From Candidatus Eiseniibacteriota bacterium (lineage in GTDB: Bacteria > Eisenbacteria > RBG-16-71-46 > CAIMUX01 > VGJL01): a stretch of 64,000 nucleotides of DNA. Below the pieces are notes generated by a model, which made no database searches, was not told where the DNA came from, and saw only the letters and a list, made by a program, of their open reading frames with translations. Positions 49,497 to 63,530 of the stretch are shown one piece after another (position 1 is the stretch's first letter; each line of letters opens with the position of its first letter). The position numbers and the translations under genes were made by a program. The stretch is taken from contig CAWBWI010000001.1 of NCBI GenBank assembly GCA_963792585.1, positions 1,216,001 through 1,280,000 on the forward strand, read 5' to 3'.

Positions 49497-50165
49497 TCAG
49501 GACCCCTCCGGGTTACGTCCGGCCAGCGCGGCCGCCGCGGCCGCGGCGCGCTCTTCGAGTGCTGCCACGCGGGCGGTGAGTGGACCCAACGCCGCATCGT
49601 CCGTGGCAGCTCCGGCCGGTGCCGGGGCCATCCCCTGCTGCTGGCGGCCACGGACGAACTTCAAGTATCCGAGGCCGATCGCCACGATCAGGGCAAAGAG
49701 GATGACCCAAAACCTCGCCACGGAGTTGCCCGAGAAGACCACCCAGCCGACGCCGTAGACCATGGTGAACAGGCCGCCGAGGAGGAGCCCGTTCGAGATC
49801 ACTCGAATCCGCTCGTTCTGGGTGAGGGAGACGACCAGCACGAGCGTGGCGAAGAGGACGAGGATGATGCTCGTCACCCGAGCCCAGTCCTTCAGCTCCG
49901 CTTGGTGTTTCTCGTTGAGGGCGTCCTGCTCGGCCCTCAGGCTGTCGAGTTGCGCCTGCTCGGCCGCCGTGAAGCTGCCGGGGGCCGCCTTGGCGTTCAA
50001 CGACTCCTGCCGCCGCGAGGTCTCCTGCATCCGTTTCGTGTACTTCTCGGCCGGCGACGGATAGAAGGTGTTCACGCCGACACCGACGAATGCCAGCACC
50101 ATGAGTCCGAGGAAGAACGAGAAGATGGTCTGCAGCGCATAGTGCTGCCGATCCGTTGCGATCAT
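49497..50165 (-). CDS. Hypothetical membrane protein (about 4 TM segments plus a coiled-coil loop)
   Basis: Hydrophobic segments, GGGAGG RBS, coding-like sequence. Confidence 0.7.
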   Translation of the reverse strand: MIATDRQHYALQTIFSFFLGLMVLAFVGVGVNTFYPSPAEKYTKRMQETSRRQESLNAKAAPGSFTAAEQAQLDSLRAEQDALNEKHQAELKDWARVTSIILVLFATLVLVVSLTQNERIRVISNGLLLGGLFTMVYGVGWVVFSGNSVARFWVILFALIVAIGLGYLKFVRGRQQQGMAPAPAGAATDDAALGPLTARVAALEERAAAAAAALAGRNPEGS

Positions 50166-50394
50166 GGTCCCTCCCGTGCGGTTCCGGCGAGTTGCCGGAG
50201 ACGTGCGAATCGCCTCGACTCACACCGGCCCTCCTGCCCGCCTCCACCGCCGAATCTCAGGAAGTCTACCGGAACTGCACCCCTGTTTCCGCGAATCGAT
50301 TGCGGGGCGGGTGACTCCACGCCGACGCAAGTGCTACGATTCTGAGTTTGCTTCGACCGCGGCGCGCGAGACCTTCGGCAAGGAGAAGGGCACT

Positions 50395-52189
50395 ATGAGA
50401 ATCCTCTATCACTATCTCAAGAGATACCGCGGCCGGGTGCTCCTGGCGCTGTTCCTTGCGACCGTGAATCAGTGCTTCTCCCTGCTCGATCCCCAGATCT
50501 TCCGCCACATCGTCGACGAGTACGTATCGAAGTTCAAGCAGTACACCGGCACGGAGTTCTTCCGCGGCGTCTCGATGCTCCTGCTCGCCGCGGTCGGGGT
50601 GGCATTCGTCTCCCGTGTGGCGAAGAACTTCCAGGACTACTTCATCAACGTCATCACGCAGCGGCTCGGCGCGGAAATGTACGCCGACGGCCTGAAGCAC
50701 TCGCTGGAACTGCCGTATCAGGTATTCGAGGACCAGAGAAGCGGCGAGACGCTGGGCAAGTTGCAGAAGATGCGGACCGACGTCGAGCGGCTGATCTCCG
50801 TGGGAATCAACTTCGCCTTCACGACCTTCGTCGGGGTCGTCTTCGTGACCGTCTACGCGATCACCGTTCACTGGCTGATCGCCCCGATCTACTTCTCCAC
50901 GATTCCCATCATCGGCGGGCTGAGCGCCATCCTCAGCCGCAAGATCAAGAAGGTGCAGAAGGTCATCGTGGCCGAGACGACGGCCCTCGCGGGGTCGACC
51001 ACGGAATCGCTCCGAAACATCGAGCTGGTCAAGAGTCTGGGGCTCGCCCAGCAGGAGATCAGCCGCCTGAACGCGACGACGGACAAGATCCTCCAGCTCG
51101 AACTGAAGAAGGTGCGCTACCTGCGGAGCCTGAGCTTCATCCAGGGAACCTGCGTCAACGCCCTGCGCACGGGGATTCTCGGCCTGATGCTCTACCTCAT
51201 CTTCGCGCAGCAGATCACGTTCGGGCAGTTCTTCGCGCTATGGATCTACTCGTTCTTCATCTTCGGACCGCTGCAGGAGCTGGGAAACATCATCAACGTC
51301 TACCGGGAGTCGGAGGTGTCGTCTGAACAACTTCGAGGAGATCCTGCGCATGCCCGCCCGAGCCCCGGCCCGCGTCGCCGGTTCGTCCTCGAGCACATCG
51401 ACAGCCTCGACTTCGACCACATCAGCTTCCGGCACTTGAGCGGCACGACGGACGCAGTCACCGATGTCACGTTCCGGGCCACGAGGGGCGAGACGATCGC
51501 CCTGGTCGGTCCGTCGGGCTCGGGCAAGACCACGCTCGTCAAGCTTCTCGTCGGCCTCTACCGCCCGCACACCGGGCGCGTCTGCTACAACGGGGTGGCG
51601 GCGGACGCCGTCGACCTCGATCGACTGCGCGAGCGGATCGGCTTCGTCACGCAGGACACCCAGCTCTTCTCCGGCACGATTCGGCGAGAACCTCGTCTTC
51701 GTCAACCCGACGGCGACCGACGAGGAGTGCCTGGACGTCCTGCACAAGGCGGCCTGCCAGAGCTTGCTGGCCCGGGCGCCCAATGGGCTCGATACCGTGA
51801 TCGGGGAGGCGGGGGTGAAGGTGTCGGGGGGCGAGAAGCAACGGCTGTCGATCGCCCGTGCGCTCCTGCGTCATCCCGACCTTCTCGTCTTCGACGAGGC
51901 GACCTCCGCGCTCGACTCCCTGACGGAGGAGGAGATCTCGGCCACGATTCGTGAGATCTCTCTGTGGAAGTCGCTCATCACCATTCTCATCGCGCACCGG
52001 CTCTCGACCGTGATGCACGCCGACACGATCTACGTCCTGGAGCGCGGCCGGATCGTGGAGTCGGGGAAGCATGCCGAGTTGCTTGCGATGAAGGGTCTGT
52101 ACTTCGCAATGTGGCGTCAGCAGATCGGGGAACGGGGCGATCCCCCCGCGGTCGAAGATCTGGAGCGTGCGGTGATCTCCGGGCGCTGA
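50395..52189 (+). CDS. ABC transporter, fused permease/ATP-binding (frameshifts near 51320 and 51680)
   Basis: TM domain; [41 protein letters not shown]. Confidence 0.92.
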
Positions 52190-54749: not shown

Positions 54750-55778
54750 CTATAGCTTGGTCTCGCGCTCCAGAATGATCTCGACGCGACGGTTGTTGGC
54801 GCGTCCTTCAGCGGTGGCGTTATCGGCGATCGGGCTTCCTTCGCCGATCCCCCGAGCCTGGATGCGACCGGAAGGGTAGCCCTTGTGCAGCAGGTAGTCG
54901 CGGACGGCGTCGGCCCGGTGTTGCGACAGGTTACGGTTGTAGTCCTCCGCACCCTGGGAATCGGTGTATCCCTCCACCAAGACGTTGCGGCCGGGACTCG
55001 CGAGCAGCGCATCCGCGACCTGATCCAGCCGCGACTGCGCGCCCGTGAGCAGGATCGCTTCGTCGGATCGAAAGAGGACGCTGCCCGAGAGCGTGATGAC
55101 CATGCCCCGCTCATCCTCCTTGACGGCGGCGAGTTTGGCGAGCGCGGCCTGAGCTTCGGTCGCCTTCTGCTCGGCCTCGATGCGGGCCTTCTGCTCTGCG
55201 GCGAGCTGCTCGGCGGTCGCCTGGCTGCCCCGTTCCGACACGGCCAGTGCGGTACGCGTCTGGTTCAAGGCCTCGGTCTTCTGCTGCATGAGTGTGGCCT
55301 GCTCTGCCGTCCGCTTCTCGGCCTCCACACGTGTTTGTTGCTCGGAGGCCAACCGCTCGGCCGTTTCCTCGCCCCTGCGTTGCGAGATCGCCAGCGCCGC
55401 CCGGGTCACACTTAGATCCTCCGTCTTTTCCTGCAGGATACTGCCCTGCGTCTTCTGGTAATCGCTGTCCGCCCGAGCCTTGCTCTGTTGCTCCGTGACG
55501 ATCGACGCCTGCCCATCCGCCATCTCGGCCTTCCGCTGTGCCACATATGCGAGGTCGCGCGAATGGTACGTGCTGCCGTCCTTGGAGAACGACTTCTCGG
55601 CCTGGGCGAGCGCCTCCTGCGCCTTGTGGAGATCCGCCGGCGCGAGTTGCGCCGCAGGCCCCGCGCTCGCGTGCTGGTAGGCCAATCGGGCGTTGGAGAG
55701 CTCACTCGGTACGGTGGCGGCGCAGCCAACCATGAGCGCTGCACACGCGACCACAATCAACATTCCGGTCGTCTTCAT
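54750..55778 (-). CDS. OmpA-family lipoprotein (DUF4398 + coiled coil + OmpA C-terminal domain)
   Basis: Lipobox LMVGC; VEGYTDSQG..YNRNLSQHRADAVRDYL; GRANNRRVEI. Confidence 0.92.
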   Translation of the reverse strand: MKTTGMLIVVACAALMVGCAATVPSELSNARLAYQHASAGPAAQLAPADLHKAQEALAQAEKSFSKDGSTYHSRDLAYVAQRKAEMADGQASIVTEQQSKARADSDYQKTQGSILQEKTEDLSVTRAALAISQRRGEETAERLASEQQTRVEAEKRTAEQATLMQQKTEALNQTRTALAVSERGSQATAEQLAAEQKARIEAEQKATEAQAALAKLAAVKEDERGMVITLSGSVLFRSDEAILLTGAQSRLDQVADALLASPGRNVLVEGYTDSQGAEDYNRNLSQHRADAVRDYLLHKGYPSGRIQARGIGEGSPIADNATAEGRANNRRVEIILERETKL

Positions 55779-55798
55779 AGAGGGCTCCTTCCAACCGG

Positions 55799-56149
55799 TC
55801 ATCGGTTGTCACTTCGGAGTTGGCGTACCCGCTCCATCGCCTGCGCGGCTTCCAGCTTTTCGCCCTGCTCACGGGAGAGGACGACGGCCAGCTCGGCGTC
55901 GGCCTCAGCCCGCAGCAGTTGCGACGCGGCCTCATCCTTCTTGCCCTTATCCGACAGGACCCTTGCGCGATCCAGCTCCTCCTTCGCCAACTGCAGATGG
56001 TACGAAGCGCGCGGGACCCCGCTTGCCCCGACCTCCTCCGCGGCGCGGATGGCCGAGGTGGAGGACTCGGTCCGCAGTGCGGGACGGCTTGCACAGCCTG
56101 CGCCGACCACGACGATAAGCAGACTCCCCAACATCAATACACGTCTCAT
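55799..56149 (-). CDS. DUF4398 lipoprotein
   Basis: Lipobox GAGC; AIRAAEEVGA...LQLAKEEL...AEADAELA. Confidence 0.85.
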   Translation of the reverse strand: MRRVLMLGSLLIVVVGAGCASRPALRTESSTSAIRAAEEVGASGVPRASYHLQLAKEELDRARVLSDKGKKDEAASQLLRAEADAELAVVLSREQGEKLEAAQAMERVRQLRSDNR

Positions 56150-56181: not shown

Positions 56182-56838
56182 TCAGAAGCTGAAGCCCAAA
56201 GCCAACGTCGTGGTGAATCCGTTCAACTTGAATCCGTTCAGGGCGTACTCGGTCTCGTTCAGCTTGATCTTCTGTTCACCGAAGGACGGATTGGCCCAAA
56301 CGTACCGGCCCTCGACCCCGATGAAAGCATTCCGCGAGATGTTCACGTTCAACCCGCCTCCGGTGTGGATCCCGAAGGTCGTGGTCCCATTGAAGGTGTT
56401 GAGATTGTCACTCACGTTGAACTTGGTGAAGTAGGCGCCGATTCCCAGCTCACCGTACGGATCGACCGGCCCGACGGGGATGAGGGCCTTGGCGGACGCG
56501 ATGATCGGGATCACGTTGAAGTCCACCTGACGGCGGGCTGCGATCCCGTTGGCTGCCGCGAATGAGCCGGTACCCTTGAAGTACCCCGCGCCAAGTTCGA
56601 GGGCAAGCGTGGGAAGGAAGTAGTGGCCGATTGCGAGCTCGCCGTTCACACCCGTCTTCGTGTCGCCTTCGAAGGTCGTCTCGAGGTCGACATTGCCGAT
56701 GTTGAACGAAGAGCTGGGCGAGTAGACCCCGCCCTTGAGGGCGACGTAGCTTCCCAGCATCCCCGCTCCGTAAGCCTGCGTTGCGAGACCAGCCACGCCA
56801 AGCATGGTGAGTAGAAACAGCACACGTGTCGTTTTCAC
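56182..56838 (-). CDS. Outer-membrane beta-barrel protein (OmpW/porin-like)
   Basis: Signal peptide, amphipathic beta strands, C-terminal LGFSF; GTG start after GAAGGAG. Confidence 0.85.
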   Translation of the reverse strand: MKTTRVLFLLTMLGVAGLATQAYGAGMLGSYVALKGGVYSPSSSFNIGNVDLETTFEGDTKTGVNGELAIGHYFLPTLALELGAGYFKGTGSFAAANGIAARRQVDFNVIPIIASAKALIPVGPVDPYGELGIGAYFTKFNVSDNLNTFNGTTTFGIHTGGGLNVNISRNAFIGVEGRYVWANPSFGEQKIKLNETEYALNGFKLNGFTTTLALGFSF

Positions 56839-56959: not shown

Positions 56960-56975
56960 AGCAACTCGCGTGCCG
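56960..56975 (-). promoter_or_regulatory. Sigma-54 promoter (-24/-12) CGGCACGCGAGTTGCT
   Basis: Near-consensus YGGCACG-N4-TTGCW upstream of the barrel-DUF4398-ompA operon. Confidence 0.8.
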
Positions 56976-57240: not shown

Positions 57241-57307
57241 CGAGAGCCCCGCTGTGTCCCGTGCCGCCAGGTGATTGCCTGTAAGAGGTTACGAGAGAAC
57301 TCGCCGG

Positions 57308-57323
57308 CGGCACGTTGGTTGCT
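57308..57323 (+). promoter_or_regulatory. Sigma-54 promoter (-24/-12) CGGCACGTTGGTTGCT
   Basis: Near-consensus match upstream of the PA2779-like gene. Confidence 0.8.
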
Positions 57324-57447: not shown

Positions 57448-57849
57448 ATGAAGACTTACCGGAGATTCTCCCTGGCTGTGTTCACCGTGATCATGATCGC
57501 TGTTTGCGCTGCGGGAGTCAGCCTGGCCGTCGAGACCCCACGTCACGTGGTCGGAGAAAGTGAAATCCAGGCCAGGATCGATCAGCAGATCGACCAGGCC
57601 GGCGCCGATCGACAGGCGATTCAGACCATGCTGCAGCGCGAGGAAGTCCGGCAGATCGCCGGGTCAGCCGGTCTGGATCTCGAGCGGGCCAGCGCCGCCG
57701 CCGCGGTCCTGTCCGGCCCCTCACTCGAGAGTCTGGCTGCGCAGGCCAGAGCGGTTAACGCCGATCTCGCGGGCGGGGACAGCACCATCGTCATTTCGGC
57801 GACCGCGCTCATCATCATCCTCTTGCTCATCATCCTCATCGCCAATTAG
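57448..57849 (+). CDS. PA2779-family-like exported protein with AGG motif and hydrophobic C-terminal tail
   Basis: Signal peptide; DRQAIQTMLQREEVRQ...GLDLERA...LS..L..LA; LAGG-DSTIVISATALIIILLLIILIAN. Confidence 0.78.
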   Translation: MKTYRRFSLAVFTVIMIAVCAAGVSLAVETPRHVVGESEIQARIDQQIDQAGADRQAIQTMLQREEVRQIAGSAGLDLERASAAAAVLSGPSLESLAAQARAVNADLAGGDSTIVISATALIIILLLIILIAN

Positions 57850-57861
57850 GAGCGCTCATTC

Positions 57862-59938
57862 GTGAGAGCTCGGCGTGGGATCGGGGTCTGCTTGGCGGTG
57901 GCGGCTCTTTCTTGGTCCGCCTCCGTCGACGCCCGTATGCCCTCGCGTGACGGGGGCTCTACGGAAAAGGTGCAGGTCCTCGACGTTCCCTTCGTCCCCC
58001 AGAGCGGAGAACTGTGCGGCGGGGCCGCGCTCGCCATGGTTTTGCGCTACTGGGGGATGCCCGGCGTCCTCGCCGAGGACTTCACTGCACTGTTGGAGCC
58101 AGGACTGGCGGGCATACGAACCGGCGCCCTCGTGAACGCCGTCGAGTCCTACGGATGGACCGCGCTTCCCTTGCCGGGGACTGCGGCTGAGGCTCGGAAC
58201 CACCTCGCTCAAGGGCGCCCTGTCATCGCGCTGATCCGGGCCGGTTCAGGCTCCAATCACTACGTAGTGGTCCTGGCCCGAGCCAACGGGTGGGTGGTTC
58301 TCCATGACCCGAACGTGGGGCCGTTCCGGGCCGTTCGCGAAAGCGTGTTCGACGCCGCCTGGTCCGAAACTGGACGGTGGGCGCTTCTGGTACTGCCTCC
58401 GCCCAAGACCGATGAGCAGAACGCGCCGTATCTCGCGACAGCCGACTCCACGACGTTCGAGGCTCCGGAGGCGTGCGATTCGATGGTGGAGGCGGGGATT
58501 CTCTTGGCGCAGCAAGGAGACACGGCGGCAGCGGAACTCCAGTTCCTGGCGGCCCAGTCGCCTGTCGCCCGCCTCCGCCGCGCCGCTGCGCGAACGCGCG
58601 GGACTGCGATTTCGCGCCGAGGACTGGGCGGGCGCGGGTCGACTGGCGGAGCGCGCCCTCGCCCTCGATCCGCGCGATGCATCCACCTGGCGGTTCCTCG
58701 CAGGCGCCCGCTTCCTGGCCGATGACGTCGACGGCGCGCTCTCCGCGTGGAACCATGTGTCCGAACCGCGGACCGACCTGACACGTATCGATGGTCTGAC
58801 GCGCATCCGCTTCTCGGCCGTGGCCCGCCAGCTCAACCTGCCGCCGGGGCGGCTTCTCACACCGAGCGCCTTCCGCCAGGCCCGCCGTCGTCTGGCCGAA
58901 GTGCCGGCCCAGTCGGAGTTCCTGTTGAGCTTGAGACCCCTTCCGGGCGGCAACGCTCAAGTGAACGTGACACTCCTGGAACGCCCGCCCGTGTTCGATG
59001 GTCCCTTGGATGTCGGGAGCGCAGGCATCAAGGCTCTCACCGGACGTGAGATCGCTCTGGATGTCGCAAGCCCCACCGGGAATGGCGAGTTGTGGACTGC
59101 CGGGTGGAGGTGGTGGAAAGACCGGCCCCGCGTCTCGCTGGCGCTGACGATTCCGGCGGCTGGAGGCCGCCCCGGGATCTGGCGACTGGACGGATTCTGG
59201 GAGCGACAGGCCTACGGAGCTCCGGTCGGATTTGGTTCGGGCGACACGACTCGTGCGTCGGTGAGCCGAGAGCAACGCCGACGTACGGCGCTCTCCTTCG
59301 CGGACTGGCTTGGCCCGGATGTGCGTATGGAGGTCGGCGCGGCATTGGATGAATGGGTCGGAAGGGGCGCCCACCTCTCGCTGGAGGGAAGCGTTGAAAC
59401 GCGATGGGCGCGCGACCGTCTGGCGCTGGTAGCAGGGGCGGCACGGTGGGTGAACCTGAAACACGGCGCTCCGTTCGGCACCGGCGTCATGTCCCTCCGA
59501 TGGAGCTCGAACGTTCTGGATGGCAGCGACGCGTGGCAAATCCGCATGGGCGTATCCAGCACGACAGCGGATGCCCCTCTTGCGCTCTGGTCCGGAGCGG
59601 GAACAGGTTACGGGCGCGCGCCGCTCCTCCGTGCTCACCCCCTGCTGGACGGAGGCGTGTTACGCGGCCGGATCTTCGGACGCACGCTCGCCCACGGAAC
59701 GATCGAAAGGCAGGCCTGGCCATGGAGACTCGGGATCGTGCAGATCGGCTGGGCCCTCTTCGTCGACGGCGCCAAACCATGGGACACGGGGCAGACTGCT
59801 CCAATCTCGTGGCAGGTGGATGGCGGGACGGGCCTCCGCCTGCGGGGTTTGGGCATGAAGGGTCAGCTTCGGATCGACGCTGCCCGCGGACTCGAGGATG
59901 GGAGCTCGGCGGTATCCGTCGGCTGGCAGATTCCCTGA
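57862..59938 (+). CDS. C39-like cysteine peptidase (PA2778-like) + TPR + POTRA + Omp85-like beta-barrel (frameshift near 58560)
   Basis: DVPFVPQSGELCGGAALAMVLRYWG, NHYVVV, HDP; TPR AERALALDP; POTRA-like IDGLTRIR...VNVTLLER; barrel end DGGTGLRL...LRIDAARGL...VSVGWQIP. Confidence 0.75.
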
Positions 59939-62234: not shown

Positions 62235-62898
62235 TGAAACGACATTCCAGCCAGCATTGGCATCCTCGTCTTGATCGCGGCGGCAATCACCGCCGGTTGC
62301 GCACAGGAACGGGACGGCGTTCGAGCCGCCGCGTCGGCGCAGGAGCGGGCCCCGCAGAAGCCCCGCGTCGAGACACTCGTCATTCCGAGCGGGACCAGCG
62401 TCATCGCGTCCCTCGATACGCGACTCTCATCCGAAACGAACCATGCAGGTGACGCGTTCGGCGCCACGACGACCGAACCCGTTATCGTTGCCGGGAAAAC
62501 GGCCATCCCGGCGGGCGCGCGGATCCACGGAGTGCTGCGCGACGTCCAAGCCTCCGGCCGGATCAAGGGCCGCGCCCGTATGACGCTCGCCTACGAGTCG
62601 ATCGTCGACTCGCAGGGCAAGACACACCCAATCTCGGCGCAATCCCTCACGCTTGCAGGCGGCATCCACCACCCATAGCGACGTCGAGAAGATCGCTGCC
62701 GGAGGAATCCTCGGCGCGATCATCGGTGGGGTCACCAAGGGGGGTAAGGGCGCTGCGATCGGCGCAGGCGCGGGGGCGGGCGCCGGAACCATCCTCATGC
62801 TCGCGACGAAGGGCGACGACGTGGAACTCGAAGCGGGTCAGCGACTGAACGTGCAGATGATGTCTCCTACGAGCATTCAGGTGCTGGCGCAGCGATGA
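62235..62898 (+). CDS. Lipoprotein with beta-rich domain and glycine-zipper C-terminus (frameshifted)
   Basis: Lipobox ITAGC; IPSGTSVIASLDTRLSSET..GDAF; IAAGGILGAIIGG..GGKGAAIGAGAGAGAG. Confidence 0.75.
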
Positions 62899-63029: not shown

Positions 63030-63530
63030 ATGAAGAGCACTCGAATGATTCTGCTGGCGGCCACGCTGGCCGCTATCTTGGGCCCTGCCCTTGCTTTGGC
63101 GGGTCCCGATACCGATGTCGGTTTCCGGGGATGGGGTCCACGGATCGGGCTGTCGCTCAACCCCGACCAGGTCCACTTCGGAGCCCACCTCGATTTCGGT
63201 AACTTCGCGAAGCACGTTCGCTTTCAACCCAACCTGGAGTTGGGTTTCGGCGACGACGTGAAGCTCTTCACCGCCAACGCCGAGGCGTCGTATCGCTTCA
63301 GCTCCCGCTGGGACGTCTGGTCGCCATACCTCGGCGGCGGGATCGGCGCAAACGTCAAGAGCGTCGATATCGGTAAGGACAGCACCTCACAGACTGACCT
63401 GGGCGTCAACCTGCTGGGCGGGGTCGAGAAAGGACTCTCGGACGGGGATCGGTTCTTCATCGAGGGCAAGTTCAGTCTGAACGACGTCCCCGACGCCAAG
63501 GTCACGGTCGGATGGACGTTCTATCACTAG
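63030..63530 (+). CDS. Small outer-membrane beta-barrel protein
   Basis: Signal peptide ALA; PYLGGGIG, GVNLLGG, FFIEGKF, C-terminal VGWTFYH. Confidence 0.8.
   Translation: MKSTRMILLAATLAAILGPALALAGPDTDVGFRGWGPRIGLSLNPDQVHFGAHLDFGNFAKHVRFQPNLELGFGDDVKLFTANAEASYRFSSRWDVWSPYLGGGIGANVKSVDIGKDSTSQTDLGVNLLGGVEKGLSDGDRFFIEGKFSLNDVPDAKVTVGWTFYH

Follow-up and report, generated by a model that had tools for sequence, protein, structure and literature searches.

A conserved Gly-Gly precursor gene paired with a C39 peptidase-TPR-POTRA-barrel fusion in Candidatus Eiseniibacteriota

A stretch of 64,000 nucleotides from Candidatus Eiseniibacteriota bacterium (contig CAWBWI010000001.1, positions 1,216,001 to 1,280,000; hereafter the window, whose own numbering is used below) was analyzed, and a conserved module of two genes was found at positions 57448 to 59938. 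Gene 1 codes for a PA2779-like precursor in which a conserved Gly-Gly pair precedes a hydrophobic tail. Gene 2 codes for a single chain that joins a C39 peptidase with an intact catalytic set to TPR helices, one POTRA domain and a barrel homologous to the Omp85 proteins. The module is a new arrangement of known parts, and its unexpected feature is a helix predicted in place of the first barrel strand. We think it rather probable that the precursor body acts as a leader for a cut made near the outer membrane, with the tail as the product. The features of the module are as follows.

57307..57323 (+): sigma-54-type -24/-12 site, GGCAC-N5-TTGC at 57309-57322, about 125-140 nucleotides (nt) before gene 1
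57448..57849 (+): gene 1, PA2779-like precursor of 133 amino acids (aa); NF033919 38.9 bits alone and 40.1 in a genome search (cut-off 40 bits), weak DUF6627 match
57448..57528 (+): putative Sec-type signal peptide of gene 1, residues 1-27, read from the sequence
57541..57591 (+): main predicted docking segment on TPR/POTRA, gene 1 residues 32-48 (complex model)
57685..57714 (+): second predicted docking segment, gene 1 residues 80-89 (complex model)
57772..57777 (+): Gly109-Gly110 within LAGG, with a presumed cut after Gly110 (conservation in 49 homologs)
57778..57846 (+): hydrophobic tail of 23 residues, the presumed product (length, Thr119 invariance, hydropathy)
57862..59938 (+): gene 2, signal peptide-C39-TPR-POTRA-Omp85-like barrel; GTG start at 57862, TGA at 59936-59938, 691 aa in relatives
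57970..58401 (+): C39 peptidase domain, residues 37-180 (Pfam, LahT 6mpz fold match, conservation)
58471..58753 (+): TPR domain, residues 204-297, predicted receptor for the partner body (fold and complex model)
58559..58559 (+): extra base that breaks the frame, a likely assembly error; absent from the contigs of 4/4 runs of relatives
58766..58981 (+): single POTRA domain, residues 302-373 (fold; aligns with the last POTRA of 30 BamA/TamA-like proteins)
59003..59044 (+): predicted helix, residues 381-394, in place of Omp85 strand 1 (two models; profile alignment to BamA strand 1)
59048..59929 (+): Omp85-like barrel of 15 predicted strands, residues 396-689 (TamA fold match, Foldseek, Atlas)
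59627..59638 (+): loop-6 motif LRAH at the Omp85 VRGF position (R590 and H592 in 196/196)

The gene pair and its distribution

A preliminary description of this DNA had joined gene 2 into one protein across a frameshift near 58560, and comparison with relatives bore this out. A search with the second part of gene 2 returned 527 relatives among 8000 candidates, and the best of them, P0004, is one intact protein of 691 residues, with an identity of 90% across its first 232 residues and of 95% across its last 456. The contigs of the sequencing runs that lack the base at 58559 represent relatives of the source strain (about 92-97% identical) and not this strain, and the best run shares 0.14 of its words with the stretch. 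Because the relatives lack the extra base and two neighbouring genes of the window (the sigma-54 activator gene and the gene at 62271-62895) also carry single-base breaks in comparison with their own relatives, the break at 58559 is likely an assembly error. That gene 2 is a true pseudogene in this particular strain, whatever the family does, is unlikely: its frame is indeed broken and the reads available for comparison come from relatives, but, besides the two points just given, neither half of the gene shows a further stop or any decay. The contigs of one RNA run span parts of both genes and their flanks, and are not readable as expression.

The N-terminal domain of gene 2 has the papain-like fold of C39 peptidases together with their Gln, Cys, His and Asp (Gln47 at 58000, Cys52 at 58015, His133 at 58258 and Asp149 at 58306). 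Pfam Peptidase_C39_2 matched the first part of gene 2 with 39.7 bits against a cut-off of 24. The domain superimposed on LahT (6mpz) with Z 18.6 and a root-mean-square deviation (rmsd) of 2.1 over 133 aligned residues, and Z scores for the peptidases of peptidase-containing ATP-binding cassette (ABC) transporters were 17.5-18.6; no ABC domain was found in gene 2 by domain scans and fold. Homologs of 630-760 residues were pooled into a set of 196, in which His133 and Asp149 were invariant (196/196), and Gln47 and Cys52 were present in 185, the other 11 showing gaps and none a substitution; the gapped entries appear to be truncated at the start. The catalytic set is therefore intact, as first described, and the TPR and POTRA segments reported at the same time were confirmed by fold. 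Against NF033920, which has a cut-off of 150 bits, gene 2 scored 59 bits and three fusions scored 59-72, compared with 303 for a canonical member.

Re-reading of gene 1 gave the layout previously assigned to it, namely a signal-peptide-like N-terminus, a helical body, LAGG with its Gly-Gly pair at 57772-57777 and the 23-residue tail. Both proteins are most likely exported by Sec. Two relatives carry the PA2779 family annotation, and a plasmid search with gene 1 gave no match. The conservation expected of the Gly-Gly pair was found among the partner homologs, with Gly110 in 49 of 49 and Gly109 in 48; the residues flanking the pair were variable. The tail is 22-26 residues long, has Thr119 in 49/49 homologs and reaches a best 19-residue Kyte-Doolittle mean of 2.9-3.5, and its last four positions lack a basic residue in 42 of the 49. 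In fused systems it starts in a strand-like manner (T-V-V-I-S-x-T). Body positions V34, V35, I40 and I44 are kept in 39-44 of 49 homologs. Hydrophobic positions before the Gly-Gly pair lie at -4, -8, -15 and -18; the classic double-glycine leader has them at -4, -7 and -12.

A scan of species genomes gave 285 related stretches, of which 80 were kept and yielded 54 loci, mostly from Eisenbacteria, Krumholzibacteria, Acidobacteriota and Gemmatimonadota; these homologous loci are related by descent, so that their counts show linkage and are no statistics. The fusion is one open frame in 45 of the 54 loci (five are cut by contig ends and four are broken elsewhere), and the partner lies directly upstream in 50, the remaining four beginning at a contig end. 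Thus the pair occurs together across genomes. Within the phylum of the window, the partner profile matched 44 of 206 genomes and the fusion followed 29 of the 30 best matches. The module is patchy in the phylum and present in a single copy in this genome, which has five other Omp85 matches. A Krumholzibacteriota genome (L049, L051, L052) has the fusion in three copies, spread over different contigs. At L079:5332-7965 the precursor and the fusion form one frame of 878 residues and the precursor tail is lost, probably through a frame error in that assembly. A literature search, with subscription journals mostly outside its coverage, found no description of a C39-Omp85 module.

In 25 of 46 loci the motif GGCAC-N5-TTGC is present in the 300 nt before gene 1, compared with 1/46 for the reverse strand, 4/270 windows of coding sequence and a genome-wide rate of 0.008 per 300 nt. 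This recurrence is in line with the sigma-54-type site that had been noted upstream of the pair, which we regard as a putative promoter.

Predicted docking of the precursor and the structure of the barrel

The complex of P0004 residues 35-691 with residues 28-133 of the window's gene 1 product was modelled. Its score was 0.73, and the best of three controls reached 0.01; among solved complexes 116 of 157 reach the docking mark, and among mismatched pairs 2 of 215, counts that are approximate with own alignments. The runs shared at least 63% of their contacts, with a partner pLDDT of at least 69. The confident contacts join partner residues 32-48 and 80-89 to TPR residues 210-285 and to the POTRA domain and linker (310-379), and many of the predicted contact positions are conserved; residues 375 and 379 of gene 2 touch the soluble body of the partner. 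The model thus supports capture of the partner body by the fusion and is silent on cutting or insertion. The placement of LAGG in the active site, which the preliminary description had proposed to model, was not obtained with confidence.

The AlphaFold model of P0004 (130 sequences, pLDDT 85.0, pTM 0.82) consists of the C39 domain, the TPR, one POTRA and a barrel. After the POTRA domain it has 15 strands, and residues 381-394 form a helix where strand 1 should be. A second AlphaFold model, of an Acidobacteriota homolog that is 42% identical (144 sequences, pLDDT 89.6, pTM 0.88), again gave 15 strands and a helix. The best Foldseek matches of the barrel model were TamA and BamA, VIA-align against TamA (8us1) gave Z 25.5 with an rmsd of 5.0 over 344 aligned residues, and an Atlas search of the barrel gave 0.97 with ten of the ten best matches in one clan. 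Pfam Omp85 (PF01103) matched the homolog P0252 with 26.2 bits against a cut-off of 24, and a PF01103 scan of the window's own gene 2 protein gave no match. Sequence search of solved structures returned matches to the TPR and C39 parts and found neither a barrel nor a similar complex. Mutual-information contacts were noise at the alignment depth reached.

In a profile alignment with 30 BamA/TamA-like proteins, strand 1 fell on the helix segment with a probability of 66%, or 93% by way of the split forms described below. The segment from Glu373 to Glu409 is 35-36 residues long in 141 of 144 sequences, contains a run of small and hydrophobic residues and has frequent prolines at 375, 378, 381 and 383. 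R590, H592 and D635 were found in all 196 homologs, within the variants LRAH and FxDxA of what we take to be the VRGF-type loop-6 motif and the FxDxG strand-13 motif of Omp85 proteins; the split forms are nearer to the consensus. Since several structural alignments of the second model start at residue 395, in the middle of the helix, and match it to BamA 426-427, and since residues 375 and 379 contact the soluble body of the partner, the helix would be expected to cross the membrane along the path of strand 1. Taken together, sequence and models suggest that the gene 2 barrel is derived from Omp85 and is not a canonical member: the POTRA domain and the homology of the barrel, by fold and by profile, agree with the preliminary description, and its 16 strands gave way to 15 and a helix in both models.

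Architectures of the module and tails of the precursors

The peptidase adjoins the precursor in all four architectures that were found. In the first, that of the window, C39, TPR, POTRA and barrel are fused. In the second, the split form, a stand-alone TPR-POTRA-barrel gene was found in 17 of 301 genomes of an Acidobacteriota sample; in 16 of them it directly follows a C39 gene, and in the 17th the C39 gene lies at another place in the genome. The split barrel matched the fusion with a profile probability of 99.9% over 480 columns; split barrels have the helix-like segment at the same place and carry LRGH, LRAH or MRAH in most cases. The precursor body of the split form ends in Ala-Gly in eight of nine examined and in Gly-Gly in one, and the tails of this class lack the strand-like start. 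The third architecture, barrel-less and made up of three genes (precursor, C39 and a TPR gene with a lipobox), was found in one family of the window's phylum. The cut site of these barrel-less relatives is GG in 21, GS in 5 and GA in 2 of 28, and the lipobox was present on the TPR protein in seven of the seven examples displayed. The fourth is the canonical PA2779/PA2778 pair, with the lipobox on the C39-TPR protein (one example); among 181 fusions, a lipobox was matched weakly in three. In enterobacteria, the outer membrane is the usual destination of lipoproteins that lack Asp at +2. Judged from these sequences, what is common to the architectures is a membrane-tethered TPR beside a C39 enzyme and a precursor. 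In some Acidobacteriota, then, peptidase and barrel are encoded by separate adjacent genes, and this adjacency strengthens the link between the two rather than refuting the reading of gene 2 as a fusion. Of the outcomes that the preliminary description had named as refuting and that can be computed, no other was seen.

Some Acidobacteriota have up to five unlinked precursors with a shared body and differing tails (L192-L196, L207-L210, L212, L259), and in the same genomes the C39 and barrel genes lie together elsewhere. In one genome, five of six paralog pairs had 61-76% identity between their bodies and 8-20% between their tails, the sixth pair being a recent duplicate; in another, body identity was 52-69% and tail identity 24-41% in three of three pairs. 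The tail motif is specific to a lineage and is kept within each lineage.

Several further arrangements were observed. At L025:6460-9340 a signal peptide is joined straight to the TPR-POTRA-barrel part, the C39 domain is gone and the barrel motifs are divergent; this locus was considered as a case in which loss of the peptidase went with loss of the Gly-Gly pair and was set aside as ambiguous, as its site HG-A may be a GA variant. At L223:4509-6670 (-), two tandem precursors are followed by a C39-TPR gene with a lipobox-like segment and no barrel match. A YjbH-family barrel gene stands divergently beside barrel-less operons at L148, L151-L154, L166 and L182; as a parallel partner of these operons it was rejected, being present in 7 of 28 loci alone, four of them seeds. 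A gene for an FKBP-type isomerase lies near the barrel-less operons in about a third of loci. Fifty neighbours chosen at 14 Acidobacteriota loci were scanned (50 of 122 called open reading frames), and none of them was an additional constant gene.

Proposed function, related systems and neighbourhood

The following course may be proposed. Sec would export both the precursor and the fusion; the TPR and POTRA domains would keep the precursor body at the base of the barrel seam; the C39 domain would cut after Gly110; and the freed helical tail of 23 residues would be the product, entering the outer membrane through a seam lined by the helix instead of strand 1. A conserved, leader-like body with a variable tail suggests a leader-and-core pattern. 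An active part of the barrel in inserting or releasing the peptide, in addition to the leader-guided cut, is a plausible further step, and we give the two together somewhat less than an even chance. Still more tentative is the general form of the idea, an outer-membrane maturase-insertase for alpha-helical peptides in which strand 1, normally the binding strand for beta-barrel substrates, has been traded for a membrane helix and the opened seam inserts or releases short hydrophobic helices once the peptidase of the same chain has removed an exported leader that the TPR holds.

Several observations weigh against this course. The hydrophobicity of the tail is high enough to expect a stop in the inner membrane, as very hydrophobic segments are expected to halt there during Sec export, and we know of no carrier that takes such a tail to the outer membrane; the escape of so hydrophobic a tail from the inner membrane is the main gap. 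Barrel-less lineages exist, so a dedicated barrel is not needed everywhere, and the separate C39 enzyme of the split and barrel-less forms could reach the inner membrane. Variable tails also fit membrane anchors that are free of constraint. The complex model shows no confident contact for the Gly-Gly pair, the tail, the C39 domain or the barrel, the alignments behind the two AlphaFold models overlap, and the hydrophobic moment of residues 381-394 does not separate helix from strand (0.30 vs 0.26). A genome of the same family (L025/G005, 94% complete) keeps the precursor and the barrel, and two queries found no C39 domain in it. Finally, PlpD, itself an enzyme-POTRA-Omp85 protein, need not translocate anything, according to the available text of PMC11116518.

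Three other explanations were weighed, the first two with the same, rather low probability. The barrel might be a tether alone, which holds TPR and peptidase at the outer membrane while the cut tail enters unaided or through BamA. The lipoboxes on the TPR proteins of barrel-less systems, the lipid anchor of PA2778 that likely does the same, the PlpD precedent, the five other Omp85 matches in this genome and the lack of a confident tail-barrel contact in the model all agree with a tether, but a barrel of 300 residues with invariant loop-6 and strand-13 residues and a seam altered throughout the family would be a costly anchor, and the split form keeps its barrel although the peptidase is not tethered by it. 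Alternatively, the tail might anchor the precursor in the inner membrane and the body might be the product; the precursor would then bind the outer-membrane TPR as a link or signal until the Gly-Gly cut releases it. The hydrophobic tail would suit such an anchor, as would the fact that the body is both the conserved and the binding part, the free C39 enzymes of the other forms and a likeness to Gly-Gly C-terminal anchors as we know them. However, judged from domain sizes, a cut site 3-8 residues away from the inner membrane would be almost out of reach for a barrel-fused peptidase, and an anchor sits poorly with tail residues that are invariant within lineages, above all Thr119, and with the general lack of basic residues at the tail end; up to five paralogs with nearly equal bodies and different tails would be hard to explain.

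It is quite improbable, in our estimate, that the partner stays uncut, with the Gly-Gly pair as a hinge, the partner as a stable subunit that plugs the open seam with its tail, and the peptidase acting on something else. A barrel predicted to be one strand short, the strand-like start of fused-system tails, the retention of precursor, tail and barrel without the C39 domain at L025 and the failure of the model to place the Gly-Gly pair in the active site would all fit an uncut partner. A donation of the missing strand by the tail is made less likely by the split class, whose tails have no strand-like start although its barrels have the same helix-like segment, and the constant place of the peptidase next to the precursor also argues for cleavage. 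So does the spectrum of GG, GS and GA sites, which fits double-glycine peptidases; GS is, as we understand it, among the sites that they accept. GG and GA are both named for them in the available text of PMC5557850.

Among known systems, PA2779/PA2778 (NF033919, NF033920; DUF6627) is one of those nearest to the module, with the same gene order and a precursor consisting of signal peptide, helical body, Gly-Gly pair and hydrophobic tail, followed by C39-TPR. The canonical PA2778 is a 321-aa lipoprotein without a barrel, whereas the window fusion has no lipobox, includes the POTRA domain and barrel, and goes with another tail motif. In the literature search no functional study of PA2779/PA2778 was found; they are named in passing in the accessible part of PMC3985676, and PA2778 is named a possible type VI toxin in that of bioRxiv 10.1101/733030. 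In the Omp85 proteins TamA, BamA and FhaC, too, a POTRA domain precedes a barrel that is homologous to that of the fusion; of their loop-6 and strand-13 motifs, the fusion has what look like variant forms. The fusion differs from them in its 15 predicted strands, its predicted helix for strand 1 and its N-terminal C39-TPR part. In the main text of the survey of ten Omp85 subfamilies (PMC4104836), as far as it is available, the words peptidase, C39 and TPR are absent and no such architecture appears. PlpD, the patatin-Omp85 protein formerly assigned to type Vd, likewise combines an enzyme domain (likely periplasmic) with a single POTRA and an Omp85 barrel on the same chain, but its enzyme is a patatin lipase, where gene 2 has C39, and it has 16 strands, forms a homodimer and has no partner gene (PMC11116518, available part). 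The same source has the PlpD enzyme domain staying in the periplasm and not being secreted, which makes the type Vd analogy of the preliminary description outdated. Of that earlier interpretation, the fused protein, the fixed partner, the conserved Gly-Gly pair and the predicted binding were upheld, the canonical 16-strand barrel was not borne out by the two models, and the type Vd analogy was given up.

The remaining systems share the chemistry or the layout. In Fap export (FapD and FapF), a periplasmic C39 peptidase exported by Sec serves an outer-membrane barrel pathway that needs its catalytic Cys (PMC5557850, available part). FapF, however, is a trimeric 12-strand barrel outside Omp85, the substrates are Asn/Gln-rich amyloids, enzyme and barrel are separate and there is no TPR receptor; no Asn/Gln-rich amyloid subunit was found among the recurrent neighbours of the module. 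The peptidase-containing ABC transporters (ComA, PCAT1, LahT) have the same C39 fold and catalytic set and act on a conserved leader with a variable core, but they cut in the cytoplasm and export through the transporter, whereas the window pair has putative signal peptides on both proteins. The GlyGly-CTERM/rhombosortase system combines a Gly-Gly pair, a membrane helix and a basic C-terminal cluster on diverse bodies with a rhomboid protease. The module shares the Gly-Gly pair and the helix, but its protease is C39, its body is conserved and most of its tails lack the basic end. By analogy, the module would work like the Fap system and the double-glycine peptide pathways and would belong to neither.

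A DUF4398-OmpA gene recurs around the module in 26 of 55 loci, and genes for small barrels, for a Gly-zipper protein and for a sigma-54 activator recur there too. In the window, a DUF4398 gene and then a DUF4398-OmpA gene lie at 54750-56149 (-). Genes for small outer-membrane barrel-like proteins lie at 56182-56838 (-), 63030-63530 (+) and 63609 onward (+), the first two each found again at 16 of the 55 loci; a separate sigma-54-type site, near 56974, belongs to the gene at 56182. The gene at 62271-62895 (+) codes for an exported protein with a TrbI-like segment, which has a Gly-zipper in relatives and one frame break here. The XylR_N/V4R sigma-54 activator gene at 61627-59951 (-) is convergent with gene 2, shows two or three frame changes compared with intact relatives and is a candidate for the regulator of the sigma-54-type site. 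Farther off, an ABC transporter gene at 50164-52189 (+) is seemingly split over two frames near 51460-51650.

For the place of the module in the cell, we take PA3691-lptF of P. aeruginosa to be a DUF4398-OmpA pair. Under inhibition of LolCDE in that species, PA3691 and lptF were up 17-31-fold, PA2779 was up 7.3- and 6.5-fold and PA2778 was up 6.4- and 5.2-fold, according to the available part of PMC7685553. Because PA2779/PA2778 are induced in this way, the module may have a role in envelope stress, an analogy drawn across distant species.

The route by which helical peptides arrive at the outer membrane of bacteria is, to our knowledge, poorly understood. An insertase role of the barrel, if real, would give the Omp85 scaffold a third activity. 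It would also make the module the periplasmic, Sec-dependent equivalent of the double-glycine pathways, one that in some Acidobacteriota handles several variable peptides in a single genome. A 16-strand barrel is the defining trait of Omp85 proteins, and in BamA incoming substrates are bound by strand 1 (PMC11116518, available part); a widespread lineage with a helix at strand 1 would amount to an experiment by nature on the lateral gate. For PA2779/PA2778 of Pseudomonas the module provides a handle as well: it predicts the part that is recognised, the domain that recognises it, the membrane and the position of the cut.

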